39,680 nucleotides of DNA. Origin: a virus. Its lineage: Duplodnaviria > Heunggongvirae > Uroviricota > Caudoviricetes. A program made the position numbers and the translations under genes. The first letter of the stretch is position 1; every line of letters starts with the position of its first letter. The notes beneath the pieces are model-generated. The model was not told where the DNA came from. It made no database searches and saw only the letters and a list, made by a program, of their open reading frames with translations. Shown piece by piece: positions 1 to 39,680 of this stretch. Where the stretch lies: the IMG/VR virus record IMGVR_UViG_650377934_000001. One strand, given 5' to 3'.

Positions 1-396
1 ATGAAAACGGTCATCACCTTCGGCACCTTCGATGTGTTTCATGTCGGTCATCTGCGCCTTTTACAACGCGCCCGCGCATTGGGCGAGCGGCTGCTGGTCG
101 GCGTATCGTCCGACGCCCTGAACATCGCCAAAAAGGGCAGGGCACCGGTTTACCATCAGGATGACCGCATGGCGATCATCGCCGGGCTGGCGTGCGTGGA
201 TGGCGTATTTCTGGAAGAGTCGCTGGAGCAAAAAGCGGAGTATTTGCGCGGGTACAGTGCGGATATTTTAGTGATGGGGGATGACTGGGCAGGGAAGTTT
301 GACAGCTTTGCGTATATTTGTGAGGTGGTCTATTTCCCCCGCACGCCGTCGGTGTCGACGACGGGGATTATTGAGGTGATTAGAGGGCTTTTATAA
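1..396 (+). CDS. tagD: Glycerol-3-phosphate cytidylyltransferase (TagD-type, CDP-glycerol synthesis); host gene
   Basis: 131-aa ORF beginning at window base 1; N-terminal nucleotidyltransferase motif GTFDVFHVGH (HxGH) plus MGDDWAGKFD and CEVVYFPRTPSVSTT blocks that I recognise as typical of TagD-family enzymes; stop TAA 394-396. Confidence 0.8.
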   Translation: MKTVITFGTFDVFHVGHLRLLQRARALGERLLVGVSSDALNIAKKGRAPVYHQDDRMAIIAGLACVDGVFLEESLEQKAEYLRGYSADILVMGDDWAGKFDSFAYICEVVYFPRTPSVSTTGIIEVIRGLL

Positions 397-435
397 AGTA
401 CTAAAACAGAGATGTATTTTCTTGCCGGATGCGGC
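397..435. repeat. Host intergenic REP/BIME-like palindromic unit, left part (interrupted by prophage)
   Basis: ...GCCGGATGCGGC at 424-435 continues across the prophage into GTAAACGCCTTATCCGGCCTAC at 37158-37179, forming a canonical REP-type imperfect palindrome. Confidence 0.6.
431..435. repeat. Target-site duplication, left copy (GCGGC)
   Basis: Identical pentamer GCGGC directly abuts both prophage termini (431-435 and 37153-37157). Confidence 0.9.
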
Positions 436-2115: not shown

Positions 2116-2149
2116 TTATCCAAAACCTCGGTTTACAGGAAACGGTAAA
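2116..2149. repeat. 34-bp inverted repeat (Gin recombination site) bounding the G segment, gin-proximal copy
   Basis: TTATCCAAAACCTCGGTTTACAGGAAACGGTAAA is the exact reverse complement of 5166-5199; identity stops on both sides. Confidence 0.9.
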
Positions 2150-3134
2150 CAGGGCTAGGAACGCCGTGCAAAAGAATGGCGATACCTTGTCCGGTGGGCT
2201 TACTTTTGAAAACGACTCAATCCTTGCCTGGATTCGAAATACTGACTGGGCAAAGATTGGATTTAAAAATGATGCCGACAGCGACACTGATTCATACATG
2301 TGGTTTGAAACAGGCGACAACGGCAATGAATATTTCAAATGGAGAAGCAAACAAAGCACCACAACAAAAGACCTGATGAATCTTAAATGGGATGCTTTGT
2401 CTGTTCTTGTCAATGCCATTGTAAATGGCGAAGTCATATCAAAATCAGCAAACGGCCTCCGTATTGCTTATGGTAATTACGGATTCTTTATTCGTAATGA
2501 TGGTTCAAATACATACTTCATGTTGACAAACTCCGGTGACAACATGGGGACTTATAACGGATTAAGGCCATTATGGATTAATAACGCTACTGGCGCTGTT
2601 TCGATGGGGCGTGGTCTTAATGTTTCAGGGGATACACTTTCAGACCGTTTTGCTATTAACAGCAGTAATGGTATGTGGATTCAGATGCGCGATAACAACG
2701 CTATCTTTGGGAAAAATATAGTTAACACTGATAGCGCTCAGGCGTTGCTTCGCCAGAATCACGCCGACCGCAAATTTATGATTGGCGGTCTGGGAAATAA
2801 GCAATTTGGCATCTACATGATTAATAACTCAAGGACAGCCAATGGCACCGATGGTCAGGCGTACATGGATAATAACGGAAACTGGTTATGCGGTGCTCAG
2901 GTCATTCCGGGAAATTACGCCAACTTTGACTCCCGCTACGTGCGTGACGTTCGGCTGGGAACTCAGTCACTGACTGGCGGCTTGTCTCGTGATTACAAGG
3001 CGCCATCCGGTCATGTTATTACAGGTTTTCATACCAATGGCGACTGGGAAATGCAGGGAGGGGATGACAAGGTTTATATCCGTCCGGTTCAGAAGAATAT
3101 CAACGGTACCTGGTATAATGTAGCGAGCGCCTGA
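2116..3134 (+). CDS. Silent alternative tail-fibre variable cassette (S' variable part), currently not fused to the constant S region
   Basis: Reading frame runs through the inverted repeat and encodes the same [11 protein letters not shown] junction peptide as S; the part of ORF 1890..3134 upstream of 2116 is antisense to gin and not genic. Confidence 0.75.
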
Positions 3135-3136
3135 TT

Positions 3137-3664
3137 ATGATGCATCTGAAAAACATTAAGTCAGAAAATCCAAAAACTAAAGAGCAATATCAGCTAACAA
3201 AGAATTTTGATGTTATCTGGTTATGGTCCGAAGACGGGAAAAACTGGTATGAAGAAGTAAATAACTTTCAGGACGACACCATAAAGATTGTATACGACGA
3301 AAATAATATTATTGTTGCCATAACCAAAGATGCCTCAACGCTTAATCCCGAAGGCTTTAGCGTCGTTGAGATTCCAGATATAACAGCCAACCGCCGCGCT
3401 GATGATTCAGGAAAGTGGATGTTTAAGGATGGAGCTGTAGTTAAACGGATTTATACGGCAGACGAACAGCAACAACAAGCCGAATCACAAAAGGCCGCAT
3501 TGCTTTCCGAAGCTGAATCAGTCATCCAGCCGCTGGAACGCGCTGTCAGGCTGAATATGGCGACGGATGAGGAACGCGCACGACTGGAGTCATGGGAACG
3601 CTACAGTGTTCTGGTCAGCCGTGTGGATACGGCAAATCCCGAATGGCCACAAAAGCCTGAATAA
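3137..3664 (+). CDS. Alternative tail-fibre assembly protein (U'), silent cassette
   Basis: 175-aa ORF, clear paralogue of U ([21 protein letters not shown]...DGKNWYEE shared N-terminus); convergent with U. Confidence 0.8.
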
Positions 3665-3669
3665 AAATT

Positions 3670-3689
3670 AAGGCCCGATAGCGGGCCTT
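3670..3689. terminator. Palindromic hairpin between the convergent U and U' stops (probable bidirectional terminator at the midpoint of the G segment)
   Basis: AAGGCCCG-ATAG-CGGGCCTT perfect 8-bp stem; followed by a T-run on the - strand (AATTTTTAT). Confidence 0.55.
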
Positions 3690-3692
3690 CTC

Positions 3693-4226
3693 TCATTCTG
3701 GTTGTTCTGGAAACGTTACTGGCAGGCTGGAGGTGTCTGTGGATTCGACCTTCTGCGCGTAGAGCATCCACTCTGTTAATTTTTGTTTATTCTCGTCGGA
3801 AATGATGCCCAGCCGTAGCTGTGAGTCCCATAGCTGTGTTTTATCCCTGACGAGCTGTAGCAGGCTTTGCTTTTCATTTTCCGCTTGTTGCCTCTGCTCT
3901 TCCTCGGTATAAGTTCGCTTTATCACTACACCATCTTTGAACATCCATTTACCCGAAATATCAGCCCGGCGATTTGCTGTAATATCAGGAACCTCAACGA
4001 CGTTTGCGCCTTCTGGATTAATTGCTGAAACATCCTTTTCAATACAAATAATAACGCCGTTGTGGTCATAGACCATTTTCAACGTATCAGGCTGAAAGTT
4101 CTTTTGTTCCTCATACCAGTTTTTCCCATCCTCTGTATAAAGCCATTTGATGTTAAATTGTTTCGTTAGCTGGTATTGCTCTTTTGTTTTAGGGTTGCCA
4201 GCAGTAATATTTTTTAAGTGCATCAT
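3693..4226 (-). CDS. U: Tail-fibre assembly protein U (expressed orientation)
   Basis: 177-aa ORF directly downstream of S on the late-operon strand; paralogue of U'. Confidence 0.8.
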   Translation of the reverse strand: MMHLKNITAGNPKTKEQYQLTKQFNIKWLYTEDGKNWYEEQKNFQPDTLKMVYDHNGVIICIEKDVSAINPEGANVVEVPDITANRRADISGKWMFKDGVVIKRTYTEEEQRQQAENEKQSLLQLVRDKTQLWDSQLRLGIISDENKQKLTEWMLYAQKVESTDTSSLPVTFPEQPE

Positions 4227-4228
4227 AA

Positions 4229-5695
4229 TTAAATACTCCCCGCGTTATACCACGTTCCATTAATGCAATACTGAATTGGCCTTGCCTGAGTTGTATCAAT
4301 TAATTCATCACGGTTTCCGTTAACTGAACCCGTAACGACATAACCTGACCTGTCAGACCAGCCGGGACCATTCCATGTCTGAACAGATGACAGACCGCCA
4401 AGACGAATACCTGTAATAAACCTTGAGTTACATTCTGCCTGCGTATATGCACCAACATCTCCCGCTGATGGCTTACGTGTTGTGGTGTAAATTTCTGACC
4501 AGTCAGCTTCGAATCCGTAACCATCACGCGCTGAACGATAAAAAATACCGCCGTTCCTGTAATTCACACGGAACTGTACGGCAGGGCAACTCCCCGTATT
4601 CATATTGAAGTGGAGGATTAATGTCGATGCGCCACCAATATTTGCGTTATAGACCCCGCTATTCCAGTTCCAGCCAACAGCTTTATCATTTCCGACAGTG
4701 CTTCCTGTTTGTCCTAAAGCAAATGCAGGCTGCTGGTTTTTCGTGTTGTAGTCTCGTCGCCAGCCAGGAGCATAAGCATCACCATGATTAATATAAGTGA
4801 ATTGAGCGTTAGTGATTCCGCCGCCGCTGGACGTACTCGGCGTAGTAACGCGTATGGTCATTGCGCCGCGAGTGCCAATAACTTCCACCACAGCACCTGC
4901 AAGACAAATATTTCCGCAACCTGTATCTGTAATGACCTTATTGTTTGCATAAGCCCATGAGCCTTTGCACATCCAGTAAGGATGGTTAAATGCCCCCTGA
5001 CTCTCCAGCCACGAAATAAATTGTGCGGTTGTCCAGACCTGACTATCGCCACCAATATTCAGCCATGCGCTATATGCGCGACAGGCCCCAATATTTTTGG
5101 TGAAGGTATCTTTTCCTGGAATATCTGCGCCGTTCTGGTTTTGCTGTAATGCGCCAGAAGCCTGATTTACCGTTTCCTGTAAACCGAGGTTTTGGATAAA
5201 CAGCGGCTTATTGGGAATATCTGCTCCGTTCCGGTCTTTTGCCAGACGGGCATTGGCATTATCCATTGCAATTTTCACCGCTTTTGCGGTGGCTGCCAGC
5301 GTTTCACTGGGGCTGTCAGTGGCACTGGTTAGCTGAACGAGTCCTTTTTTGTTCAGGCTGGCATCATAGATATCCAGATTTTCACGTGCTGTACGCTGTG
5401 CTGATGCCCCGGCAGTTTTAATTTCGCTGAGGTTATTTTTTATCAGCAGCGCGTTATTGCTCATAATGGCTTTAATGGACAGTGCAAGCTGGTTTAATTT
5501 TGTTTTATCCGGTTGAATACCGGCTTCTTCCAGCGTGTTTAATAACTCCGCCTGCACAATATTAAACCAGTCCATGCCGGGCCATGTGATAACATTATTC
5601 CCGTCACCTTCTGAAAACCAGCGAACGATAGCACTACGCTGGGCGGATACGGGCGGCATGACGGTTACGCCGCTGTCGTTATCAATATAAAACAT
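4229..5695 (-). CDS. S: Tail-fibre protein S (constant part 5200..5695 fused in-frame to the variable part inside the G segment)
   Basis: 488-aa ORF spanning the inverted repeat at 5166-5199; start overlaps the stop of the upstream baseplate gene (ATGA). Confidence 0.85.
   Translation of the reverse strand: MFYIDNDSGVTVMPPVSAQRSAIVRWFSEGDGNNVITWPGMDWFNIVQAELLNTLEEAGIQPDKTKLNQLALSIKAIMSNNALLIKNNLSEIKTAGASAQRTARENLDIYDASLNKKGLVQLTSATDSPSETLAATAKAVKIAMDNANARLAKDRNGADIPNKPLFIQNLGLQETVNQASGALQQNQNGADIPGKDTFTKNIGACRAYSAWLNIGGDSQVWTTAQFISWLESQGAFNHPYWMCKGSWAYANNKVITDTGCGNICLAGAVVEVIGTRGAMTIRVTTPSTSSGGGITNAQFTYINHGDAYAPGWRRDYNTKNQQPAFALGQTGSTVGNDKAVGWNWNSGVYNANIGGASTLILHFNMNTGSCPAVQFRVNYRNGGIFYRSARDGYGFEADWSEIYTTTRKPSAGDVGAYTQAECNSRFITGIRLGGLSSVQTWNGPGWSDRSGYVVTGSVNGNRDELIDTTQARPIQYCINGTWYNAGSI
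5166..5199. repeat. 34-bp inverted repeat (Gin recombination site) bounding the G segment, S-proximal copy, inside the S coding sequence
   Basis: TTTACCGTTTCCTGTAAACCGAGGTTTTGGATAA = reverse complement of 2116-2149. Confidence 0.9.
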
Positions 5696-19097: not shown

Positions 19098-19293
19098 GTC
19101 CTGCTGCTCATCATGGTTTGTGAGCAGTCAGTTTGCGGGAGGTGCGGGAAAATCTGGGGTTATGCTATTTGAGTACTGGAGAAAGAAAGTGAAAGGAAGA
19201 TAAAACGGGATTCATACACCGTTAAATACCGGTTTAAAAATCCCGTGGCGCGTTTTAAAAAATCTGTGCGGCTGATTTTATGCCTGATTCTGT
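19098..19293 (-). promoter_or_regulatory. G-I intergenic region: late promoter for the head operon and expected location of the central strong gyrase site
   Basis: 196-bp non-coding gap at the exact centre of the prophage, about 17.9-18.1 kb from the left end. Confidence 0.55.
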
Positions 19294-36223: not shown

Positions 36224-36814
36224 TTGAAAAGTAACTTTATAGAAAAGAATAATACTGAAAAGTCAATTTGGTGTTCGCCGCAAGAAATTATGGCTGCTGA
36301 TGGTATGCCTGGATCTGTTGCTGGTGTTCACTATCGAGCAAATGTTCAAGGCTGGACGAAGCGAAAAAAGGAAGGTGTCAAGGGGGGGAAAGCTGTTGAA
36401 TACGATGTGATGTCGATGCCCACCAAAGAACGAGAGCAAGTTATTGCGCACTTGGGGTTATCCACACCGGATACTGGTGCTCAAGCCAATGAGAAACAGG
36501 ATTCTTCGGAACTGATAAACAAATTAACCACAACCTTAATCAATATGATTGAAGAGCTGGAACCAGATGAAGCACGCAAGGCACTGAAACTTTTAAGTAA
36601 AGGGGGGTTGTTGGCGTTAATGCCTCTTGTATTTAATGAACAGAAACTTTACAGCTTTATAGGATTTTCACAGCAAAGTATTCAGACGTTGATGATGCTA
36701 GATGCATTACCTGAAGAAAAACGCAAAGAGATTTTGTCAAAGTATGGGATTCATGAACAGGAAAGTGTTGTAGTACCTTCACAGGAACCACAGGAGGTAA
36801 AAAAAGCCGTATAA
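36224..36814 (+). CDS. c: Lysogeny repressor c
   Basis: 196-aa ORF with TTG start preceded by AAGGAG; N-terminal domain clearly homologous to the MuA N-terminus. Confidence 0.9.
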   Translation: MKSNFIEKNNTEKSIWCSPQEIMAADGMPGSVAGVHYRANVQGWTKRKKEGVKGGKAVEYDVMSMPTKEREQVIAHLGLSTPDTGAQANEKQDSSELINKLTTTLINMIEELEPDEARKALKLLSKGGLLALMPLVFNEQKLYSFIGFSQQSIQTLMMLDALPEEKRKEILSKYGIHEQESVVVPSQEPQEVKKAV

Positions 36815-36949: not shown

Positions 36950-37152
36950 CTGTTATTGAAATGATTTGCAGTGTTTTTGTTTTTCGTATTTTCAATGAAA
37001 CAAAAGCAATTTTTTACTATCTTTCGCGTTTCATTGATTAACGACTAAAATTTGCACTACAGGCTTGCAAGCCCCACCAAATCTAATCCCATCAGATCCC
37101 GAATAATCCAATGTCCTCCCGGTTTTTTTCGTACTTCAAGTGAATCAATACA
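36950..37152. other. Mu left end (attL) with transposase-binding repeats
   Basis: Reverse complement reads TGTATTGATTCACTTGAAGTACGAAAAAAACCGGGAGGACATTGG...; repeated CGAAA(A/G) motifs. Confidence 0.85.
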
Positions 37153-37157
37153 GCGGC
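37153..37157. repeat. Target-site duplication, right copy (GCGGC)
   Basis: Identical to 431-435. Confidence 0.9.
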
Positions 37158-37235
37158 GTAAACGCCTTATCCGGCCTACAGGACGTGATCGATCCGTAGG
37201 CCTGATAAGCGAAGCGCATCAGGCAGTTGCGCGGT
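37153..37235. repeat. Host intergenic REP/BIME-like palindromic unit, right part
   Basis: GCGGCGTAAACGCCTTATCCGGCCTAC followed by its inverted partner GTAGGCCTGATAAGCGAAGCGCATCAGGC. Confidence 0.65.
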
Positions 37236-39680
37236 TTACCCCAGCGCCTCCACAATCACAATCGCCGCCCGTTCTCCCGCCTTGCCATCCATAAACGCAT
37301 CGCAATAGTGATGGCGAATCTCCGTAAGCCGCGCCTGCACCGACCCCCAGTCAAACGCCTCTGACAATAAGTAACGCAGTTCCGCAACCTCATGAGCCAC
37401 CGGCAATATTTCGCGAATCCGCTGGTCGGCGCTCTCCGGCGTGGAATAACTTTTCTCACCGTCGAGCAGTTCCGTCATGCCCGGGAAGTCGAGCAGGATC
37501 ACCCGTTTATCAACGTGGATCGCATCGAAAATAAACCCACTGTTATCGGTGAGCACGTAATCGGCCTTTGCCAGTAGCGCCAGCGTGTGGCGGGCGGAGT
37601 CGGTGAGCTGTTTTAAGTGCCTGCGCGCCAGGGCCAGCGATGCAGCTTCTTGCGGGCGCGAGCTGGTGCCGTGGTGCAGTTTGCAAATCAGGTTCACATC
37701 ACCGCTTAAGCGGCCCAATTTTTCTGCCCAGTGGGGCAGGGAGCTTAATGCGCCAAACGTGGGGGCGTAGAGCACCGTAGGTTTACAGGAATCGGGTTGA
37801 ATATTTTCCGGCAGAGCGCGGTCGAACGTGCCGTTATGCCAGGCGTCGAAGCGCGGGTTGCCAACCACTTTTGCATTGCCGAAATGTTCCAGCGCCCGCT
37901 GGCTGTAGTGGCTGTAACACAAAATACGCTGATAAAAACGGTTCCAGTCTGCATGGTTCCACGTCTCTTTAGCTAAGCCGTACATGGCGCGGATGTTCAC
38001 GGGTGAAAGGCCATTGAGCGCAGGCGTGTGGTAGGGGCTGACCAGGCATTTCACCCGCTGACTATGTGCCTGCATCTCAGACAAGCGCATACCTTTAAGC
38101 TGCGGATCGTCGATGTTTTTCAGTGTTTCCAGCATCTCATCAAGAAACGGTTTAAACACGCGGTCATTGATCACTAGTGTGCAGCTCTTCCCCTGCGCCT
38201 GTAGAGCGGTGATGATTGGACGATACAGCGCGTAGTGGAATGAGGTTTCCATAAAAAAGCCGATGGTGTCGGCGATGGGTAATGCGGATGGCTTTGTGGA
38301 TACAGGTAACTTATTGAAATAGTGACTAATGTTGTCGGTCACTTTTTTCTCGATATCGCTAAAGCCCGGTCGCTGGTAACAAAGGCTCGGGTAACAGGCC
38401 AGCCATTTGTCGGCGCGTAGCAGCGGCTGCCAGACGTCTTCCAGCGAGTGCTCATCGTTGCTCAACTGCTGCGCCAGTTGCGGGTAGTAGCGGCTGTTCA
38501 CCAGATAAGCGCACACTTTGCGGCAGTCCCGCGCGTGCACCAGCCCCGGCAAACTTTTTAGCATCGTTCCCTGCGAAATTTCGCCGCCGAGGATCATCAC
38601 CTGCCAGGGAATTTTCGCCAGGCTCGCCAGCAGCGTGTTCAGCACCTGAATATGTTTTTCCTGCTTGAGAATAACCGCGTCATCTTCCAGCAACAGGTAA
38701 TTTTGCCAGCCATGCTGTTGCGCCAGTCGCAGCGCCTGCAAGTGCGACAGGCGGCGGCCCCGTTGACCGTTTTCATCTTCACAGGCGGCAAGGCGGGTGA
38801 TCTTCTCGGGTGGAATATGCAGCAATGCCAGTTCTTCACGGATCTGTTGTAAGCGATCCGGGCGTTTATCCAGATTCACGACGACCACCTGATCGATCGC
38901 CTGATGGTTGATCGCCTGGTGATGAGTGGCGTTATGCAGACTCAGATAAGCATTGCGCAGCAGCGGATCGCGGACGATATCCGTAAGCGCCGTGTTTACT
39001 GGCGTGCTGGCCCCGATAATAAAGTCTTTATCAAAGGTGTTGTGGCTATGCGAGATACACAAAATCGTGCGCTCGCCGGGCAGTTGCAGCGGGTTAACGC
39101 TGAAATTGTCGGTGAAACTTTTCTCTTCGCCTAAATTGCAATCATCGTCGTAACGGTGCTTTTTCAGGTAGTTACGGTGATAGCAAAAGGTGCCGTTGAG
39201 GATATTATGTGGGCCAAAGCTGCGGCTTTGAAAGATACGGTTGATATGGCTGTACCAGATGGGGATCTGGTCGGAACCGGAGATGAGCGCCCGGTGTTTT
39301 TGCATCATAGCGATGGTGTAAGAGATTTTATCTGCCGGATAGTAGTCGTCATCATCCATGCAGAGGATGTATTCGCCGCGCGCCAGTTCGTTGAGCATGT
39401 TGCGTTTTTTGCCCAGCGGCAGTTTTTCCGGGTGATGGATGTAGCGGATGTTAAAGGCTTCCGGCGTGCCATTGGTCAGGCGGTCGATGATGTGTTGATG
39501 GCTTTGTGGGGAATCGTCGAGGATGATGAGTTCGCGGCGGTCTGCCGGGTAATCCTGATAGCGGTACATATAGAGCAGGTACGGCAGGAATGCGCCGCGG
39601 TTCCAGGTTGGCGTGACGACGCTGACAAACGGTTTTTCGCGGTGGGTGGCGAGTGTTTTGATGATGGTTGGTGTTGGCAT
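37236..39680 (-). CDS. Three-domain polysaccharide biosynthesis enzyme: N-terminal GT2-like glycosyltransferase, central GT25-like domain, C-terminal CDP-glycerol glycerophosphotransferase (TagB/TagF-like); host gene
   Basis: 814-aa ORF ending at the window edge; DxD-type CMDDDDYY in the first domain; VVVVNLDKRPDRL start of the middle domain; LYAPTFG and DYVLTDNSGFIFDAIHVDKRVILL motifs in the C-terminal domain. Confidence 0.65.
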   Translation of the reverse strand: MPTPTIIKTLATHREKPFVSVVTPTWNRGAFLPYLLYMYRYQDYPADRRELIILDDSPQSHQHIIDRLTNGTPEAFNIRYIHHPEKLPLGKKRNMLNELARGEYILCMDDDDYYPADKISYTIAMMQKHRALISGSDQIPIWYSHINRIFQSRSFGPHNILNGTFCYHRNYLKKHRYDDDCNLGEEKSFTDNFSVNPLQLPGERTILCISHSHNTFDKDFIIGASTPVNTALTDIVRDPLLRNAYLSLHNATHHQAINHQAIDQVVVVNLDKRPDRLQQIREELALLHIPPEKITRLAACEDENGQRGRRLSHLQALRLAQQHGWQNYLLLEDDAVILKQEKHIQVLNTLLASLAKIPWQVMILGGEISQGTMLKSLPGLVHARDCRKVCAYLVNSRYYPQLAQQLSNDEHSLEDVWQPLLRADKWLACYPSLCYQRPGFSDIEKKVTDNISHYFNKLPVSTKPSALPIADTIGFFMETSFHYALYRPIITALQAQGKSCTLVINDRVFKPFLDEMLETLKNIDDPQLKGMRLSEMQAHSQRVKCLVSPYHTPALNGLSPVNIRAMYGLAKETWNHADWNRFYQRILCYSHYSQRALEHFGNAKVVGNPRFDAWHNGTFDRALPENIQPDSCKPTVLYAPTFGALSSLPHWAEKLGRLSGDVNLICKLHHGTSSRPQEAASLALARRHLKQLTDSARHTLALLAKADYVLTDNSGFIFDAIHVDKRVILLDFPGMTELLDGEKSYSTPESADQRIREILPVAHEVAELRYLLSEAFDWGSVQARLTEIRHHYCDAFMDGKAGERAAIVIVEALG

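Follow-up and report, generated by a model that had tools for sequence, protein, structure and literature searches.

The phage Mu prophage of Escherichia coli W interrupts a BIME-2-type pair of REP sequences between two convergent genes of the Flag-2 locus

The stretch of DNA analysed here (39,680 nt, hereafter the window) contains a complete prophage of phage Mu. This prophage is the one already published for E. coli W, and it lies in an ordinary BIME-2-type REP pair: Archer et al. (2011) described a Mu prophage within the Flag-2 locus of W, at a non-coding position (PMC3032704). We consider it very probable that one Mu genome integrated in the Flag-2 spacer of a W-lineage strain, that the y REP present in this spacer was cut incidentally, and that the duplication at the junctions was generated by Mu transposition.

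The prophage occupies positions 436–37152 of the window (36,717 bp) on the minus strand. Both of its halves match the Mu genome (AF083977/NC_000929) at 100%, and a base-by-base comparison with NC_000929 revealed three SNPs and an inverted G segment. The termini are exact, with the sequence 5'-TG...CA-3' and the full Mu genome between them. The mom, com and gin ORFs are found at the left of the window and the c repressor ORF at the right, which places Mu in reverse orientation, with the R end (attR) at 436 and the L end (attL) at 37152. From position 436 the R end reads TGAAGCGGCGCACG... (in a longer reading, TGAAGCGGCGCACGAAAAACGCG...), while the L end reads ...GAATCAATACA up to 37152 (in a longer reading, ...CTTCAAGTGAATCAATACA). 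The host DNA ends with ...TTGCCGGATGCGGC at 435 and resumes with GCGGCGTAAACGCCTTATCCGGCCTAC from 37153 on. Other Mu-like phages and prophages diverge by 2–5%, and the prophage is therefore the laboratory-type Mu clone. The initial annotation had described a simple insertion with a target-site duplication, a description that stands, and had left the element without a name; it is phage Mu itself.

The three SNPs are located at window position 36363 (Mu position 790) and at Mu positions 19272 and 29509. The one at 36363 affects codon 47 of the c repressor gene, where the window encodes Arg47 and NC_000929 carries another allele, which we take to be the cts62 temperature-sensitive mutation (R47Q). 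With only three substitutions and Arg47 in the c repressor, the W prophage is essentially wild-type laboratory Mu. The G segment (window 2116–5199) has the orientation opposite to that of both the reference Mu and the copy in strain HBUT-L.

The left flank of the prophage is a cytidylyltransferase-like gene (positions 1–396, plus strand), whose TagD-like product of 131 aa (WP_000859525.1) matches Pfam PF01467 with an E value of 1.8e-19. The same protein is annotated in SL112, B-766, HBUT-L and the records from which Mu has been deleted. On the right, a convergent glycosyltransferase gene (positions 37236–39680, minus strand) encodes a protein of 814 aa (WP_001143092.1; Pfam PF00535, E value 3e-18), with a GT2 N-terminus and a C-terminus that weakly resembles TagF, the CDP-glycerol glycerophosphotransferase (PF04464, 19.4 bits, below the cut-off). 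Both ORFs are intact and convergent, as had been proposed, and their lengths of 396 and 2445 nt are the same in ATCC 8739, a genome with an empty site. From the stop codon of the plus-strand gene (394–396) to that of the minus-strand gene (37236–37238), the spacer measures 117 bp once Mu and one GCGGC are removed, in agreement with the gap of roughly 120 bp estimated previously. In ATCC 8739 (Crooks), the empty site follows fliE-fliJ and precedes flgN/flgM, i.e., it lies in the Flag-2 lateral flagellar cluster, in which the cytidylyltransferase gene directly follows fliJ/lfiJ. The TagD-like gene and the gene for the GT2/weakly TagF-like protein thus form a pair between fliJ and flgN of Flag-2 (window 1–396 and 37236–39680; L001, 5651–8608), which suggests a putative glycerol-phosphate-type modification module for the lateral flagellar system.

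The 252-nt reconstructed empty site was searched in 5,426 complete E. coli genomes and was recovered in one piece in 571 of them. It was 100% identical and uninterrupted in all 25 genomes among the matches listed (at least 25), ATCC 8739 included. The initial annotation had held that absence of the reconstructed site from all genomes, or flanks mapping to different loci, would speak against a simple insertion; the search that it proposed found the site uninterrupted in E. coli, with one locus for both flanks. The same spacer, occupied or not, is present in 571 + 4 + 2 of the approximately 578 records that contain the gene pair. Occupied junctions were detected only in SL112 (University of Florida), HBUT-L, hubt-sl and B-766, the sequence of E. 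coli W itself (NC_017635.1) being outside the genomes searched. SL112 and the HBUT strains presumably derive from the KO11/W lineage, and at least three of the four genomes with an occupied site are E. coli W derivatives. The Escherichia-type host background suggested earlier can accordingly be specified as E. coli of the W lineage, the junctions of the window being identical to those of W-derived production strains.

Engineered derivatives of this locus were also encountered. Two records labelled DH5alpha, NZ_CP026085.1 (L003, 1585–1810) and NZ_CM135829.1, contain a pKD-type FRT scar between remnants of the two Mu ends, approximately 70 bp from R and 70 bp from L; in both, the scar is at exactly the site of the window and is accompanied by the same GCGGC duplication. 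This scar marks a deletion of the Mu prophage that was engineered with lambda-Red in a strain bearing Flag-2. The DH5alpha label appears to be wrong, since K-12 is without the Flag-2 locus. In HBUT-L (NZ_CP104442.1; L037/L039), a complete Mu is followed at one place by ACCGT..., IS10 and a truncated frdA, and the same pattern occurs in hubt-sl. At the other place in HBUT-L, a fragment of frdA is succeeded by a cloning-vector polylinker, about 21 nt of the Mu R end and ACCGT; next comes the part of Mu that extends from within gene A to the L end, and then the glycosyltransferase gene. The pattern in these two strains looks like a Mu-associated inversion of 559 kb in the engineered lineage.

The REPs of E. 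coli are imperfect palindromes of 30–40 nt with a GTAG foot and a mismatch in the stem; they fall into the classes y, z1 and z2, and their approximately 600 copies make up roughly 1% of the genome (PMC3333891). In a BIME-2, a y REP is paired across a short linker with a z2 REP of inverse orientation (PMC3333891). When positions 1–435 of the window are joined to 37158 onward, the sequence TGCCGGATGCGGCGTAAACGCCTTATCCGGCCTACA is obtained, followed by a 16-nt linker and then by GTAGGCCTGATAAGCGAAGCGCATCAGGC. The y REP is present in the window as a 5' fragment, TGCCGGATGCGGC (423–435, plus strand), whose last 5 nt are the left GCGGC copy, and a 3' fragment, GTAAACGCCTTATCCGGCCTAC (37158–37179, plus strand), with the conserved CTAC foot at 37176–37179. 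After the linker AGGACGTGATCGATCC (37180–37195) comes the z2 REP (37196–37224, plus strand), which is intact, inverted relative to the y REP, and opens with GTAG at 37196–37199, so that the two foot motifs face each other over the linker.

For reference, these sequences were compared directly with the classical malE-malF REPs and neighbouring REPs of MG1655. The 36-nt y REP formed by 423–435 and 37158–37180 is identical at 36 of 36 positions to a copy in the lamB-malM spacer of MG1655, and it is 94–97% identical to the copies after pgi, in the ubiA-plsB spacer and in the classical malE-malF spacer. Five y-type copies were counted in 27 kb of MG1655, all of them intergenic. The z2 REP has a 90% match to a REP in the ubiA-plsB spacer. 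The reconstructed y REP folds into a hairpin with one internal mismatch (inverted repeat I2) at -21.3 kcal/mol (z -5.7 relative to shuffled sequence), and the z2 REP into a hairpin (inverted repeat I1/I3) at -12.9 kcal/mol (z -3.0). The 252-nt query, which includes the REPs, found at least 158,482 matching places in 5,421 of the 5,426 genomes, with a median of at least 28 per genome. The search of Rfam, which has no REP family, gave as sole similarity a sub-threshold match to naRNA4, the REP325-derived RNA family. With its predicted hairpins, its foot motifs and its MG1655 copies, the interrupted sequence is best described as a genuine E. coli-type two-REP unit with the composition of BIME-2, a y REP and an inverted z2 REP. 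The two-REP palindromic unit that the initial annotation had claimed is indeed recreated when Mu and one GCGGC are deleted; its internal positions needed correction, to 37176–37179 for CTAC, 37180–37195 for the linker and 37196–37224 for the second REP.

The junctions are those of a simple insertion. The pentamer GCGGC, present once in the empty-site genomes, occurs in the window as a left copy at 431–435 and a right copy at 37153–37157, an exact 5-bp duplication, and both flanks come from a single locus, uninterrupted in 571 genomes. The target positions to which the two 3' ends of Mu are attached flank this GCGGC at a distance of 5 bp from each other. Mu targets follow the rule N-Y-S-R-N, for which the strongest in vivo form is C-Y-S-R-G and CGG is frequent (PMC7350765). 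G-C-G-G-C agrees with N-Y-S-R-N and has a CGG centre, although its outer G...C differs from the C...G of the strongest in vivo consensus. It is situated in the 5' arm of the y REP hairpin, adjoining the apical loop, and Mu divides the y REP into 13 nt and 22 nt (27 nt with the duplicated pentamer), without affecting the z2 REP or either coding region. In the proposed course of events, a single Mu genome would have entered the chromosome of a W-lineage E. coli at the Flag-2 cluster, in the 117-bp spacer that separates the convergent genes for the cytidylyltransferase and the glycosyltransferase. On the basis of established Mu biology, strand transfer catalysed by MuA would have made the joints and gap repair the duplication. 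The REP would have been an incidental target, given that GCGGC, with its common CGG centre, fits the degenerate rule and that an insertion between convergent genes is tolerated.

Twenty other independent junctions of Mu or Mu-like elements were read, 3 + 8 from E. coli genomes and 9 from metagenome contigs. Three of those from E. coli had been picked for a match of a few bases to the flank of the window, and the other eight where the match had no annotated host gene. In this small survey, scored with simple REP word patterns and mostly on one flank each, no REP was present at any of the 20 junctions. About two thirds of the junctions lie within reading frames: eight of the nine metagenome flanks are open over the last 150 nt and, of the 11 junctions from E. 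coli, six break an annotated gene and the others are in non-REP spacers. The flank pentamers mostly conform to N-Y-S-R-N (TCGGC, GCGGA, CCGGG, GCCGC, ACCGC, GCCGG, GCGGG, CTGGA and CTGGC, among others); several do not (GCTAC, CAGAT, TTCCC). The Mu-like prophages of MIN10 and RMDEC465, with flank matches of 7–8 nt, were considered as REP insertions at the same position and rejected, one being in a DKNYY-family gene and the other in the non-REP yihS-yihR spacer; their short matches reflect only CGG-type target pentamers. Approximately 190 E. coli records have a Mu-type mom/R end as their sole match (761 matching records less the approximately 571 with Flag-2 flanks).

A further group of matches was left out of the survey. 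Exact 29-nt matches to the Mu R end were found in species-representative genomes (L019–L035) from Nocardioides, Arthrobacter, Gracilimonas, Ralstonia, Vibrio, Shewanella and a Bacteroidetes MAG, and, except for L031 and L032, are located within about 100–200 nt of a contig end. They lie at or near contig ends of unrelated bacteria and are most likely untrimmed adapters of MuA-transposome libraries rather than prophages.

The junctions could in principle stem from a rearrangement or an assembly artefact that brought together flanks from different loci, as the engineered strains HBUT-L and hubt-sl might suggest, in which the left and right junctions are 559 kb apart on opposite strands. In the window, SL112 and B-766, however, the junctions are one Mu length apart (about 36.7 kb) on the same strand, and the arrangement in HBUT-L is secondary, because a second, partial Mu copy lies there beside engineered frd sequences. 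For the window this reading, to which we give practically no credence, is refuted by the exact duplication and by the contiguity of the joined flanks in 571 genomes, ATCC 8739 among them. It might also be argued that the REP was itself targeted, REP/BIME-2 sequences being favoured, for example through hairpin extrusion or gyrase bending, by MuB or by the transpososome of Mu with its preference for bent or distorted target DNA. The insertion is exactly in a hairpin arm adjoining the stem mismatch, REPs are established specific targets of IS1397, IS621 and ISKpn1, and BIME-2 is a gyrase site according to literature cited in the same work (PMC1525189). We nevertheless regard targeting as very unlikely, given that none of the 20 other junctions is in a REP and that Mu target pentamers are not enriched in the spacer or the REP: N-Y-S-R-N occurs at 13 of 113 positions in the spacer, five of them in the y REP, which is no more than the expectation of 1/8. 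Furthermore, deep sequencing with more than 120 million reads has identified the 5-bp consensus as the main determinant of Mu target choice and placed Mu among the least selective elements (Walker and Harshey 2020, PMC7350765). As REPs constitute about 1% of the genome, one REP hit would be expected by chance in about 190 Mu-type records. The wider proposal that REP/BIME-2 hairpin arms, for instance as gyrase-bent or hairpin-prone DNA, are structurally favoured or selectively retained landing sites of Mu-type transposable phages, a safe harbour of which the W prophage would be one case, is at least as improbable. Mu rather looks like an element without REP preference, and its insertion in the REP of W like a chance hit.

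With regard to the consequences of this incidental insertion for the host, the initial annotation had supposed that it was silent, and given the two intact coding regions a silent insertion is plausible. The opposing view is that loss of the y REP and of the y/z2 pair alters the stability of mRNA 3' ends, attenuation or the insulation of supercoiling between the two convergent Flag-2 glycosylation genes, and that host transcription enters the Mu ends. The insertion does destroy the y REP hairpin and the y/z2 pairing. For the plus-strand transcript, that hairpin (-21.3 kcal/mol) was the only strong one at the 3' end; the transcript now continues into the Mu R end, and no intrinsic terminator was found in the 117-bp spacer. 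Reported roles of REPs include mRNA stabilisation, transcription termination and the insulation of supercoiling (PMC3333891), and Archer et al. count the Mu prophage among the reasons to doubt Flag-2 function in W (PMC3032704). On the other hand, the minus-strand transcript retains the z2 hairpin ahead of the Mu L end, and Flag-2 may not be active in W. An effect on the flanking genes is considered rather unlikely, though more probable than the other alternatives to our interpretation.

The consequence of these results is mainly one of correct annotation: the window represents the W lineage with Mu at its published Flag-2 site. The analysis adds the exact target, GCGGC in the 5' arm of the y REP within a y/z2 pair, and describes a clean, textbook Mu insertion with a recoverable empty site. 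The exact junctions may be useful to strain engineers wishing to delete the prophage. In addition, as the prophage is nearly identical to laboratory Mu, it may be asked whether W shares a source with the original Mu-lysogenic K-12 Hfr stock.

The closest known counterpart is the Mu prophage of E. coli W (ATCC 9637) of Archer et al. (PMC3032704), which is at the same non-coding Flag-2 site; the REP/BIME nature of the target and the GCGGC duplication are apparently unmentioned in the available part of that paper and are minor added details. Compared with the BIME-2 elements of E. coli (Bachellier et al.; Ton-Hoang et al. 2012, PMC3333891), the interrupted unit has the same extragenic location, palindromes of 30–36 nt, GTAG/CTAC foot, mismatch and inverse y/z2 arrangement. 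BIME-2 elements often occur as tandem multiples, whereas the W locus has a single y/z2 pair, the y unit of which is split by Mu. The REP-specific elements IS1397, ISKpn1 and IS621 (PMC1525189) arrive at the same outcome, a mobile element within a REP between convergent genes with no gene broken. These elements, however, select REPs by means of their transposases and are found there repeatedly, whereas Mu follows a degenerate 5-bp rule, and repeated, specific REP insertion of the IS1397/IS621 type was seen at none of the 20 other Mu junctions.
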